NCBI GenBank assembly: GCA_964016885.1
Contig: OZ024741.1
Span: 385,082,001-385,146,000 of the forward strand
DNA: 64,000 nt
Source of the DNA: Eledone cirrhosa
Lineage: Eukaryota
Direction of reading: 5' to 3'
The notes under the pieces were generated by a model, which was not told where the DNA came from, did not search any database, and was given only the letters and a program-made list of their open reading frames with translations. Shown here piece by piece: positions 44,189-50,470 of the stretch (its first letter is position 1; each line of letters starts with the position of its first letter). The position numbers and the translations under genes were made by a program.

Positions 44189-44364
44189 TAGGAAAATGTT
44201 TAACCCCGACGGCAGAACTAAAGCCGTTTCGACGGCTATTTCTGGACTCCAGACTTTAGTTAGACGGGGTTAAACATTTTCCTATTACCTTCTCTACTAC
44301 CCTAAGTATTGAGTACTCTGGTGCGTTAGGGTCCATCTGGTTCCTTACCACACTTCCTTCGTCA
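44189..44364 (+). mobile_element. Fold-back + tail element family X, copy 1
   Basis: Inverted arms TAGGAAAATGTTTAACCCC/GGGGTTAAACATTTTCCTA (44189-44284), then an ~80-nt tail (CTACCCTAAGTATTGAGTACTCTGGTGCGTTA...CCTTACCACA); (TA)n on both sides. Confidence 0.85.
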
Positions 44365-44540
44365 TATATATATATATATTATATATATATATATATATAT
44401 ATATATATATATATATACATATATATATATATATATATATATATATATTATATATATATATATATATATATATATATATATATATATATATACATATATA
44501 TATATATATATATATATATATATATATATATATATATATA

Positions 44541-44636
44541 TAACGAAGGAAATGTGGTAAGGAACCAGGTGGACCATAACGCACCAAAGTACTCAATACT
44601 TAGGGTAGTAGAGTGGGTAATAGGAACTTGTTCCTA
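44541..44636 (-). mobile_element. Family X copy 2 (tail + minimal 16-nt hairpin)
   Basis: Reverse complement of the same tail, then TAGGAACTTGTTCCTA; in (TA)n. Confidence 0.85.
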
Positions 44637-44700
44637 TATATATATATATATATATATGACGAAACATAAGTCAATTGCATGAACTCATAATCCTTTATTT

Positions 44701-44754
44701 ACTGCTATATATATTTCGATGATAACCATTGAATGGCTATCCTCATCAGACAGT
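44701..44754 (-). ncRNA. Type I hammerhead ribozyme (insert ~44658-44818 in (TA)n)
   Basis: Minus: ACTGT-CTGATGA-G-GATAGCCATT-C-AATGGTTATC-ATC-GAAA-TATATA-TA-GCAGT, followed by AATAAA. Confidence 0.85.
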
Positions 44755-44881
44755 TAGTCAGTTCTTAGATATGCCAGCTCTGTGTTTATAGTGTTGATGG
44801 TATCAGAGCATTGGGACATATATATATATATATATATATATATATATATATATATAGCGTACATATATATATGTATTGAGT

Positions 44882-44938
44882 ACAGAATTAGCCGTTGAAA
44901 CGGCTTGAGCTCAGCCGTCGGGGTCTTATTTGTTCCTA
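44882..44938 (+). mobile_element. Family X copy 3 (single tail-less arm)
   Basis: TAGCCGTTGAAACGGCTTGAGCTCAGCCGTCGGGG...TTCCTA followed by (TA)n. Confidence 0.75.
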
Positions 44939-45225
44939 TATATATATATATATATATATATATATATATATATATATAGAGAGAGAGAGAGAGAGAAAAT
45001 GTGAGACAGAGGGAGGAGGGAGAGAGACAGTGAAAGAGAGTATATATTTATATATATATATATATATATATATATATATATATATATATATATATATTAA
45101 CGATAGCACTGATACAGCGTACGTTCAGAATAGAAGCTTATATGCATCCATATACAATATGTTTATGCTTAATAAACATGTATATAGTCGCACTGTGATC
45201 ATATTACATCGATCTCAGTTCAGGA

Positions 45226-45280
45226 GTAAGAGCTCTGTATACATGTATTTCAGAATTATTATTCATCATCAGTTGCTTAC
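45226..45280 (-). ncRNA. Hammerhead ribozyme core, weak stem I (insert ~45097-45360)
   Basis: Minus: CTGATGA-T-GAAT-AATA-ATTC-T-GAAA-TACATGTA-TA. Palindromic stem III; proximal stem I mismatched. Confidence 0.6.
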
Positions 45281-45497
45281 TTACTCCAAGTTACTGAGAT
45301 ATGAAAGACTTGAAAATATAGAGTTTGTAAACAATCTATTTCATTGAAAACTTTTTGGCGTATATATATATACATACATACATACCTACATACATACATA
45401 CATACATGCATGCATATATATATATATATATATATATATATATATATATATATATATATATATATATATATATATATATATATATATATATATATAT

Positions 45498-46408
45498 ATG
45501 TAAGTATTTATGTATACGTACATACATATATGTATACAGACGTACAGTAGCATGCATATATATATATACACATATATACATACAGGTACACATATATGTA
45601 CGTATCAGTTTAGCGGACGCTTATTATAACGCCCGCTTTGTCGTTTGTAAACAAACTGACAGCCTGAATTTATGCCGTACGGTGTTAAGGCAACCACGTC
45701 ACCTTTTTGTTCAACACTGACACAGGAACGATGTACTAGTTTCAAGCTTGTTAGCTATCATCAGCACCGTATACCCTTCTGCCAGATGGTTGAACGTTCG
45801 AAAGTATATACTTTTCTTATGAAAATTAACGGCTGAGCAGCCTAATTTGCATATCGAGTAAGTTCAGTCGGCCAGGCGCACCGAAAACGATAAGTTGTAA
45901 TAAAATGAAAACGAAATTTCATTTCTCACTCTTAGTACTGCACTTACTTAAATGTAAGTATGTATGTATACGTACATGCATATATGTATACAAACGTACA
46001 GTAGCATGCATATATATATATATATATACACATATATACATACAGGTACACATACATATATGTACGTATCAGTTTAGCGGACGCTTATTATAACGCCCGC
46101 TTTGTCGTTTGTAAATAAACTGACAGCCTGAATTTATGCCGTACGGTGTTAAGGCAACCACGTCAGTGGTGTCAGTTTGTTTACAAACGACAAAGCGGCC
46201 GTCATAATAAGCGTCCGCTAAACTGATACGTACATATATGTATGTGTACCTGTATGTATATATGTGTATATATATATATATATATATATGCATGCTACTG
46301 TACGTCTGTATACATATATGTATGTACGTATACATACATACTTACATTTAAGTAAGTGCCGTACTAAGAGTGAGAAATGAAATTTCCTTTTCATTTTATT
46401 ACAACTTA
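45498..46408 (-). mobile_element. Non-coding retrozyme-like element: ~460-bp partial tandem unit + 5' inverted arm
   Basis: Direct repeat 45498-45701 / 45952-46165; inverted repeat 45891-46125 / 46170-46408; HHR at 45729-45769; no ORF. Confidence 0.8.
45729..45769 (-). ncRNA. Minimal type I hammerhead ribozyme
   Basis: Minus: CGGTG-CTGATGA-T-AGCT-AACA-AGCT-T-GAAA-CTAG-TA-CATCG. 5-bp stem I, palindromic stem III, GUA site. Confidence 0.85.
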
Positions 46409-46690
46409 TATATATATATATATATATATATATATATATATATGTATATAAATATATATACATACATACTTTTATTTGAATCTTCATTTTTATTTTTCAC
46501 TTTTCATTTTCATTTTTCAGTTTACATTTTCATTTTTCATTACTTTTTCATTAATTTTTCATTTATTCTCTATTTATTATTTATTTTCTGTTTTCTTCAT
46601 TTTATTGCCTTCTATTTCTTCATATACATGGCAGGAGGGATGAAGAAACACACACACAGATACTTCTAAATTGTCAGCAGCAGCAAGACA

Positions 46691-48195: not shown

Positions 48196-48428
48196 CTCTC
48201 TTCCTGCTATTTCAAGCGTTAACCTAATATATTCCTTCCATATACTGTACCGATTATGTTATTTCTGTTTACCATTTACATATATATATATTTTTTTTTT
48301 TTCAGCCCTATACCTTAACCTCATTTGCATATTCATCTTAATAATTTGAAATATTTTACTATCCAGGAAAAACTTGAACCGTTAAGATCTCATTCCTGGA
48401 TATGTCAATATTTATAAAACAAACTTTG

Positions 48429-48489
48429 TATTTTATCTGATGAGAGCGTACCAAAGTTTTGGTACCTTTGAAATATATATAATAGAATA
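48429..48489 (+). ncRNA. Type I hammerhead ribozyme
   Basis: TATTTTAT-CTGATGA-GAGC-GTACCAAA-GT-TTTGGTAC-CTTT-GAAA-TATATA-TA-ATAGAATA. 8-bp stem I; overlaps AATAAA. Confidence 0.82.
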
Positions 48490-48548
48490 AATATGGTTTT
48501 ATAAATATAGTTTCCATTTATTAATATCATTGCATATATATATATAAC

Positions 48549-48733
48549 TAGGAAAAGAGTCAGGACCCCGACGGCTGAGCTCCGCAGGTTTCGTTCGGAT
48601 CTAGCTGTCGAAACGGCCGGAGCTCAGCCGCCGGGGTCCTGAATCTTTTCCTATTAGCTACTCTACTACCCTAAGTATCGAGTACTCTGGTGCGTTATGG
48701 TCCACCTGGTACCTTACCACACCTTCTTTATTA
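48549..48733 (+). mobile_element. Family X copy 4
   Basis: Hairpin TAGGAAAAGAGTCAGGACCCC...GGGGTCCTGAATCTTTTCCTA (48549-48653) plus the same tail; in (TA)n. Confidence 0.85.
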
Positions 48734-48793
48734 TATATATATATATATATATATATATATATATATATATATATATAGAGAGAGAGAGAGAGA

Positions 48794-48856
48794 GAGATGT
48801 AGACAGGTAAAATACCGAAACCGCTTGCCGCCGCGGTCGGGATTTTACACATCTCT
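48794..48856 (+). other. 3'-half hammerhead motif with short fold-back arm
   Basis: GAAA-CCGC-TTGCCGCC-GCGG-TC-GGGA; GAGATGT..GTAAAAT upstream is inverted to ATTTTAC-ACATCTC downstream. Confidence 0.5.
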
Positions 48857-49787
48857 ATATCGACTCTGTATCTCTATGAATCGAGTTCTCCCATGATTAG
48901 TGGTCTCCTCGGTCTTCGCATCGCATATTCTCTCTCTCACTCTCTCTTTCTCTCACTCTCACTCTATATATATTATAGGCTCGCACATACACACACACAC
49001 GTATATATGTACATACACACAAACAAACATACAGACACGCACACATGTATATACGTATGAGTGTAAAACTGAACATTTCTGTCTGTTTCCCCAACTACAC
49101 ATACATACGTGTATATAAACACATCAGAGATCAACAGATATATACGCAAGCAACATTACACGTATGCCTACTGAGAATTACGTTACAACAAATCCATATG
49201 CATACACATGCACACACACACATGCACACACACACACACACACACACACACACACACACACACACACACACACACACACACACGCACGCACACACACGCA
49301 CACACACATGCACACACACACACACACATGCACACACACACATGCACATACACATGCACACATGTACCCCCCCCCCACACACACATGCACACACACACAT
49401 GCACCCACACCCACACCCGCACACACACACAGTTGCATATGTTAGTTGCAAAGCATTCTGCTATCGGAAGATGAAAAAAAACAACATCAACAATATTTAC
49501 ACAAGTGACTCCGTTCATCTTTCTGGAAGGAAGCAAAAAAAAACAAAAACAAAAAAACAAAAACAAAAAACCCCACTAAAGTCCCTTGGAAATCATATGC
49601 ACTTATCATAATTAATTTTATGAAGCTAACTCTCATATGCTTCTAGTTCTTTTTTCATCACATGTAGTATTTTGACACTTTAACGTTAGTTAATCAGCTA
49701 TCTGAAATATCCGGGATCTAAAGAAACGTAGTCAAGGTTGTATACCTAAGAATTTGGCTGCAGCACGTGACGCCTTTACAGTTTCGA

Positions 49788-49894
49788 CACACACACACAC
49801 ACACACACACACACACACACACACACACACACACACACACACACACACACACACACACACACACACACACACACACACACACACACACACACAC
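49788..49894. repeat. Perfect (CA)n microsatellite
   Basis: Direct reading. Confidence 0.97.
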
Positions 49895-49900
49895 ATAGTT

Positions 49901-50218
49901 AAAGACACAACTGTTTTCGAGTTTCAATTTCTTTCTTTAGACCTCGTGTTTTCTAATAAGGCTTTTACATAAATCTTCATAAAATACACATGCCTACAAT
50001 AAAGAGGCAGTAAAGTTAAGCCAACAAAACTCCTGATAATGAGGCCGTGAATGGCTAGAAACGTCAGTTCAATTATAGGTTAGGAACTTTGTTGTTCTAA
50101 ACGAGCTGTAAAAGCCTTATTAGAAGATACCTAATGGTTCAAATAAAGAAACTGAAACTCGAAAATAGTCATGTCTTTACATACAACACATGCATAAAAT
50201 AAGAGCTGTAACTTCCTT
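49901..50218 (+). mobile_element. Old fold-back element with degenerate HHR (50028-50069)
   Basis: Diverged inverted repeat 49901-49969 / 50107-50180; AACT-C-CTGATAA...GGCCG-TGAA-TGGCT-A-GAAA-CG-TC-AGTT between the arms. Confidence 0.55.
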
Positions 50219-50263
50219 ATATATATATATATATATATATATATATATATATATATATATATA

Positions 50264-50470
50264 TAACGAAGGAAATGTGGTAAGGAACTAGATGGACCAT
50301 AACGCACCAGAGTACTTAATACTTAGGGTGGTAGAGTGGGTAATAGGAAAAAGTATGTCCCCGACGGCAGAGCTCAAGCCGTTTCGACGGCTATTTCTGG
50401 ACGAAATAGCCGTCCAGAAATAGCCGTCGAAACGGCTTGAGCTCTGCCGTCGGGGACATACTTTTTCCTA
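50264..50470 (-). mobile_element. Family X copy 5 (near-perfect 127-nt hairpin + tail)
   Basis: Tail reverse complement 50264-50343. Hairpin 50344-50470, TAGGAAAAAGTATGTCCCCGACGGCAGAGCTCAAGCCGTTTCGACGGCTATTTC... with a perfect reverse-complement arm. Confidence 0.9.

Follow-up and report, generated by a model that had tools for sequence, protein, structure and literature searches.

Penelope-like elements (PLEs) that carry an endonuclease (EN+) are described as inserting head to head, with a tail on one side only and short target duplications (Arkhipova et al. 2013, PMC3846280; Craig et al. 2021, PMC8557442). The origin of their inverted copies, tails and tandem pseudo-long terminal repeats (pLTRs) is called unresolved in the accessible text of Craig 2021 and of Schostak 2008 (PMC2377424). 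According to the accessible parts of Craig et al. 2021, the Hydra clade of PLEs is characterised by a DKT motif, a CxCX5C linker, a C-terminal GIY-YIG endonuclease without CCHH, flanking CxxC and CxH motifs, (TA)n targets and a pLTR ribozyme. Here, we analysed a 64,000-nucleotide (nt) stretch of Eledone cirrhosa (contig OZ024741.1, forward-strand positions 385,082,001 to 385,146,000; hereafter the window), which contains five copies of a short repeat, family X, most of them hairpins. These hairpins are the shortest insertions of a Penelope-like retrotransposon that is Hydra-type by motif match. The layout of inverted copy plus tail is already published; what is added here is a Hydra-type parent with a variant ribozyme, together with controls pointing to two separate primings and to run-off at the template RNA's 5' end. 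Compared with the EN+ PLEs of the accessible text of PMC3846280, family X has a tail of approximately 80 nt rather than 30-40 nt, and it mostly occurs as stubs of approximately 200 nt with a fixed 5' stop, in addition to hairpins built from two families. Neither a fixed 5' stop nor two-family hairpins were found reported for PLEs in a search of largely open-access literature.

Positions within the element are given in nt 5' of the ribozyme GAAA; on this scale, the A in T(T/C)AGT falls at -18. Family X had been recognised from the letters alone as five copies lying in (TA)n, and all five were confirmed in that setting, as follows:

44189..44248, minus strand: copy 1, tail-less arm in inverted orientation, extending between the inner priming site (TTCC/TA) and -18
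44249..44284, plus strand: copy 1, tail-bearing arm with an internal deletion and the inner site at its end
44285..44362, plus strand: copy 1, tail, equivalent to the segment of the parent 5' leader between the two priming sites
44543..44637, minus strand: copy 2, tail plus a minimal hairpin with 8-bp arms
44879..44938, plus strand: copy 3, lone tail-less arm from -18, AGTACAG subfamily, with neither hairpin nor tail
48549..48730, plus strand: copy 4, of a divergent subfamily, with its hairpin at 48549-48653 and a tail
50266..50470, minus strand: copy 5, tail at 50266-50343, both arms ending at -17

The original prediction ascribed a constant tail to all five copies. This holds for four, with 90-93% identity to the tail of copy 1, but not for the lone arm at 44879-44938. 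Each outer end in the window reads TTCC and then TA, as had been proposed. The fold-back of copy 1 consists of a 21-bp outer stem, with the tail-side arm partly deleted; copy 2 has its 8-bp arms around a 2-nt loop; the arms of copy 4 are 81% similar; and those of copy 5 are perfect over 61 bp with a 7-nt loop, the two being linked by a filler of 9 nt in which a portion of the arm is repeated. A near-identical inverted duplicate of this locus, with the same copies, is found approximately 640 kb away (L002, G000:C2:384483435-384486519).

An exact 30-mer of the arm was matched 35,506 times across the 3.0-Gb genome, compared with no match for the reversed control, which greatly exceeds chance, and a c4-type arm gave 2,765 further matches. 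The parent was found as tandem units of approximately 3.5 kb with one open reading frame (ORF) for a reverse transcriptase (RT) plus a C-terminal GIY-YIG domain (YRDD at residue 348, VIY..YIG at 591; 2049 relatives). These domains were assigned from motifs because Pfam, applied to five protein fragments, recognised neither of them. Two arrays comprise at least four units each (3531 and 3542 bp) with an intact 717-residue ORF; a single base in 3531 separates two adjacent units. Tandem or partial-tandem pLTRs are present at L121, L122 and L271-L274, the order at L121 being tail, inverted truncated pLTR, pLTR, tail, ORF and a pLTR ending in TTCC/TA. The tail is leader sequence, and its end lies approximately 95 nt ahead of the AUG. 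Long parents exist for most subfamily tags other than c4, for which none was found among 30 loci. The window hairpins are almost certainly insertion stubs of this PLE, and the PLE origin proposed in the original prediction is thus borne out: longer copies with the 5' hammerhead half and a linked RT/GIY-YIG ORF were both found, and hairpin length is not fixed by subfamily with the terminal inverted repeats and target site duplications of a DNA transposon.

The predicted protein displays DKT at 117, the linker CNCPDRSIC at 572 (CxCX5C), CNLC at 670 and CKH at 698, with no CCHH seen by eye, and family X has the (TA)n preference of the Hydra clade. RWR occupies residues 37-39, where the clade has RWK, which is a conservative change; RWK is present in the protein of family Z, a second Hydra-type element in the window. 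The canonical CUGANGA core of Hydra-clade ribozymes is absent from family X, and we use the term Hydra-type because this core is a reported trait of the clade and not its defining character. In the accessible text of PMC8557442, elements of the clade are usually below 3 kb, compared with units of 3.2-3.5 kb here, and the Hydra ribozymes listed in its File S2 are all CUGANGA, whereas family X combines a variant core with long stems II and III. The N-terminus resembles Hydra-1_Obim by eye; since the element ends differ, family X is regarded as a distinct family. Naiad/Chlamys elements were excluded, as their endonuclease is N-terminal and that of family X is C-terminal. Elsewhere in the window (403-2361, plus strand), a broken ORF of another Hydra-type element matches the protein of family X at 35-47% identity; at the DNA level, the two do not match.

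All five window copies lack the 5' half of the hammerhead, in agreement with the earlier observation that the CUGANGA half was missing. This half is nevertheless present in longer copies, as a YUGANAAG/UUGANAA core: in loci selected by tail, the arm continues upstream into CCCC, YUGANAAG and the 5' strand of stem II, and a single 26-mer variant of this half has 732 exact genome matches. No native 5' half was recovered with CUGANGA probes, of which one gave 43 matches (30 inspected, all junction filler or other families) and the other gave none. The 12 variants compared can be folded as a type I hammerhead, in which 94.8% of cells are paired, and this fold is the minimum-energy structure in three of five variants; the 12 are closely related and display no two-sided covariation. 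The 3-8 pair is U-A in nine, U-G in one and an unpaired C/A in two. The U3-A8 core is a published PLE hammerhead variant from Schistosoma Cercyon (Cervera and de la Pena 2014, PMC4209133, accessible text), with which family X also has in common the type I fold and a palindromic loop III. It differs from those minimal hammerheads in its stem III of 4-5 bp, its long stem II and a large subfamily with an unpaired C3/A8 core. This subfamily (L095, L097, L101 and others) is widespread nonetheless, which hints that predicted ribozyme cleavage is dispensable. As copies span the cut site, the predicted ribozyme would have been uncut in the copied RNA, consistent with the dispensability of cleavage for Poseidon of Anolis (PAc; Frangieh 2024, PMC11167929, accessible text). 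For the window, which is devoid of the 5' half, no hammerhead appeared among the 150 of 173 Rfam matches listed, which were low-scoring, below threshold and mostly microRNA families.

Copies start at two defined 3' points, as anticipated by the original prediction. Tail ends are followed by TATA in 144 of 168 cases and by CATA in 10, and outer ends of partner arms by TATA in 100 of 112. Both priming sites precede TAT in the parent, which possibly provides a short (3-nt) match to the target; this match is not required, because two insertions, with target duplications of approximately 13 bp, lie outside (TA)n. PAc likewise uses two internal RT starts that define tails, at an AT-rich target with both strands cut, as found in vitro (PMC11167929); the main text of that study, as far as accessible, does not address the position of the cDNA end or the origin of the inverted arm. 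The tail occurs on one arm only, also as predicted. Among the first 100 of the 35,506 arm matches, in which both arms of one hairpin may be counted, 78 had a recognised partner of the same family and 77 of these belonged to one-tail hairpins, the remainder being 12 long arms, five without partner and five unclassified. An inverted 5'-truncated copy with a one-sided tail was also seen at L121.

The opposite end of the arm was surveyed in 230 arms not selected for the 5' ribozyme half. In 206 of them, the arm ends at most 22 nt from GAAA. Stops are concentrated 12-22 nt 5' of it, with a peak at an Initiator-like T(T/C)AGT, and the stop hazard averages approximately 0.14 per base over -12 to -22, peaks at -17/-18 and is approximately 0.01 beyond -24. 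Tail-bearing and tail-less arms have similar stop profiles despite starts 80 nt apart, and c4 copies, whose stem II differs, frequently start at the same AGT at -18. Arm lengths are bimodal, with nearly none between 60 and 400 nt. Twelve of the 100 arms pass the ribozyme core, 10 of which continue for 0.4 to 2.8 kb; as measured against other loci, these 10 extend for at least 410 nt and the others for approximately 110 nt and at least 95 nt. Leader-carrying copies were examined for 30 of 390 leader matches. In 23 the leader is followed by the ORF, and 20 of the 23 extend as far as the upstream GAAA; stem II is passed by 18 of the 20 (15 of 17 with one array counted once), compared with 12 of 100 terminal arms (Fisher p=6e-10). 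The other seven are head-to-tail mini-tandems, in six of which (five loci) the next unit begins between -14 and -21, whereas in the seventh it begins at the cut site. A targeted pattern yielded 16 junctions from ORF start to stop zone, two of them the L236/L237 pair, with no start beyond approximately -22. This pair (G000:C1:27009647-27010047) is a three-unit mini-tandem with a period of 257 bp and the same junction twice, compatible with either a small circular template or subsequent duplication.

The second Hydra-type element served as a control:

46600..47470 (approximate limits), plus strand: family Z, with a minimal hammerhead near 47299

Nine of 19 family Z rows, two of which possibly represent one copy, pile up 105-130 nt upstream of their own ribozyme core; two others extend further and eight fall short of that zone, a start within stem II being seen in a single row. 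A third family, Y, was uninformative, with only seven genome matches. These data bear on the truncation at ribozyme stem II envisaged in the original prediction. On a structural reading, the RT would stall, or change strands, on meeting stem II or the contact made by its loop. The location was right, since the upper part of stem II has the stop zone on its 3' strand, and the fold containing stem II is the minimum-energy structure in three of five variants; a freshly started RT could also be less processive than one already kilobases along. As the cause, however, the stem appears unlikely, given the 15 of 17 ORF-start copies that pass it, the like stops of arms primed 80 nt apart, the distance of the family Z stop from its own ribozyme, the head-to-tail jumps that start at the same spot, and the AGT kept in nine of 12 variants while the upper stem II helix varies among subfamilies. 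Two further candidates were rejected. Ribozyme cleavage would place the arm end approximately 40 nt 3' of the stop, where only one of seven mini-tandems joins. Splicing at an AG near -17 or -12 would require a recurring upstream exon, which was not seen in 100 listed junctions, and the hazard there is low.

The stop zone is likely the physical 5' end of the RNA, and this end is probably a transcription start, as suggested by the Initiator-like T(T/C)AGT and by a TATA-like word 29-34 nt upstream of the stop in most of nine variants scanned. We take TTAGT to be a cognate of the TCAGT Initiator. In the accessible text of the sources, TCAGT is quoted as the arthropod Initiator (PMC1876469), and the promoter and start site of Penelope of D. 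virilis lie within the pLTR (PMC2377424). At the stop, contigs built from short reads have joints and a marked change in depth, the best runs being possibly the assembly's own sample and depth not being equivalent to copy number.

Several points weigh against this interpretation. The TATA-like word is absent in one variant, was not seen in family Z, and coincides with the 5' strand of stem II; no match to a downstream promoter element was found by eye at +28 to +32. The added base gives no consistent sign of a cap-derived G: it is G at 16 of 27 stops at -18 (p=0.001 versus control), but a hand count at 70 stops gave 16 G, 20 C, 2 A and 32 T. The stop zone is approximately 10 nt wide instead of a single base. 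Most of the 20 ORF-start copies were viewed over only about 130 nt of downstream sequence. Moreover, only one of them ends in the stop zone, while a plain start-site model predicts most long copies ending at -18, so that a second type of template must be assumed. Finally, the one-tail rule is strict and is left unexplained by run-off from two primings.

On balance, and from comparison of copies, we consider it rather probable that each hairpin derives from two separate target-primed cDNAs, which run off the RNA at a fixed 5' end before being united in head-to-head orientation. The element enzyme would nick both strands of the (TA)n target, with one cDNA primed at the tail end and the other at the inner TTCC site. 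Both would run off approximately 18 nt upstream of the ribozyme GAAA and then be joined head to head, with the turn presumably sealed by host end-joining. Long and tandem copies may arise from concatemeric, circular or jump-completed templates.

The relation between the two arms was analysed with regard to a single origin, in the spirit of Arkhipova 2013, whereby one tail-primed cDNA folds back and copies itself and the endonuclease cuts the copy at the inner TTCC/TA. Such self-priming accounts for the one-tail rule (77 of 78) and for arms of the same subfamily, which were found in 94 of 101 scorable hairpins (11 ambiguous) against a random expectation of 14%, and both arms of copy 1 have two private changes in common. 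Of the seven discordant hairpins, one appears to be a true subfamily mix (L180), and the rest are doubtful on inspection. The arms had been described as alike within and unlike between copies; the differences are real but mainly reflect subfamily membership. Arm-specific divergence is 2.6% and 3.0%, equal to the 2.9% of the tail, which indicates little conversion between arms, and as the arms diverged independently at the tail rate, their match within a copy does not demonstrate fold-back. Private changes common to both arms are few (13 versus 130 arm-specific), and seven of the 13 are one sub-subfamily mark. Furthermore, 10 of 100 arms are of the tail-less kind and exceed their tail-bearing partner in length, carrying sequence absent from it. 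At six displayed loci, two (TA)n runs enclose one arm of X and one of family Z or some other family in head-to-head orientation, with one tail in four and both tails in two; these came from a probe favouring such joins, and their number is not a measure of frequency. Longer tail-less arms and two-family hairpins exclude a single self-copying cDNA for such copies. Fold-back may account for some copies and for the fillers, but as the general origin it seems still less likely than the stall.

The turns are practically unique, with 48 different strings in 49 hairpins, which upholds the proposal that the hairpin is made anew at each insertion. They often contain short fillers and local duplications, as expected for end-joining. 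Poly(A)/poly(T) runs are found at the turn beside -18 in L143, L147 and L200, and possibly represent jumps onto polyadenylated RNA. In the L015:1583 region, the arms are separated by approximately 160-200 nt of unlike sequence, which looks similar to the ORF start of a related element in reverse. Long palindromes are unstable. The short stable hairpins might be what palindrome deletion left of long inverted insertions once these had integrated; long head-to-head copies do exist and turns vary, in keeping with such a collapse. It is nonetheless very improbable, as non-palindromic lone arms, two-family joins and direct-orientation junctions have the same stop, and lengths are bimodal with nearly none from 60 to 400 nt. 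The very high copy number, the inverted ends flanked by TA and the missing long parent for c4 would in turn suit a self-contained miniature element spreading as a unit, similar to a miniature inverted-repeat transposable element (MITE) or a short interspersed element. This last alternative is largely refuted and is, if anything, the least credible: the family fails the MITE hallmarks of fixed interior, symmetric repeats and TA duplication, given the variable turns, the one-sided tail and the duplications of approximately 13 bp, and long parents exist for most other subfamily tags. Non-LTR retrozymes, which are short tandem monomers with whole hammerheads, were excluded as well, as the mini-tandem units lack the 5' half.

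The run-off of two cDNAs would resemble a retroviral step. Retroviral minus-strand strong-stop DNA is primed near the RNA 5' end, runs off and then jumps to the repeat. Family X would have these features in common with it and differ in being target-primed, in having two cDNAs and in integrating the run-off products. Tentatively, PLEs may employ a comparable strong-stop, in which an enzyme acting as a dimer starts two cDNAs close to the capped RNA 5' end; failed jumps would leave the tens of thousands of hairpin stubs, and successful ones would build tandem pLTRs. The template would possibly be a discrete RNA of approximately 250 nt ending near the start codon, and the two templates may differ in family.

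Among neighbouring features, a 31-kb satellite with a 17-bp unit and approximately 1850 copies spans 6137-37415. Family Y (45495-46409), with seven genome matches for the probe used, has a complex inverted arrangement and a minimal hammerhead at 45764 on the minus strand. Further minimal hammerhead-like motifs of other families are found within 4 kb, at 44660-44815 (minus strand), 47941 (plus strand) and 48166 (plus strand; by eye).

Stubs of this type risk being misidentified as MITEs or as hairpins of microRNA type, and ribozyme searches based on CUGANGA miss family X. Natural reaction products of the family number in the tens of thousands, its ORF is intact and very recent, and the RNA region concerned is short and defined, which makes run-off, stall and fold-back directly distinguishable by experiment. 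If the strong-stop scheme were true, the inverted copy, the tail and the formation of tandems in PLEs would be explained together.

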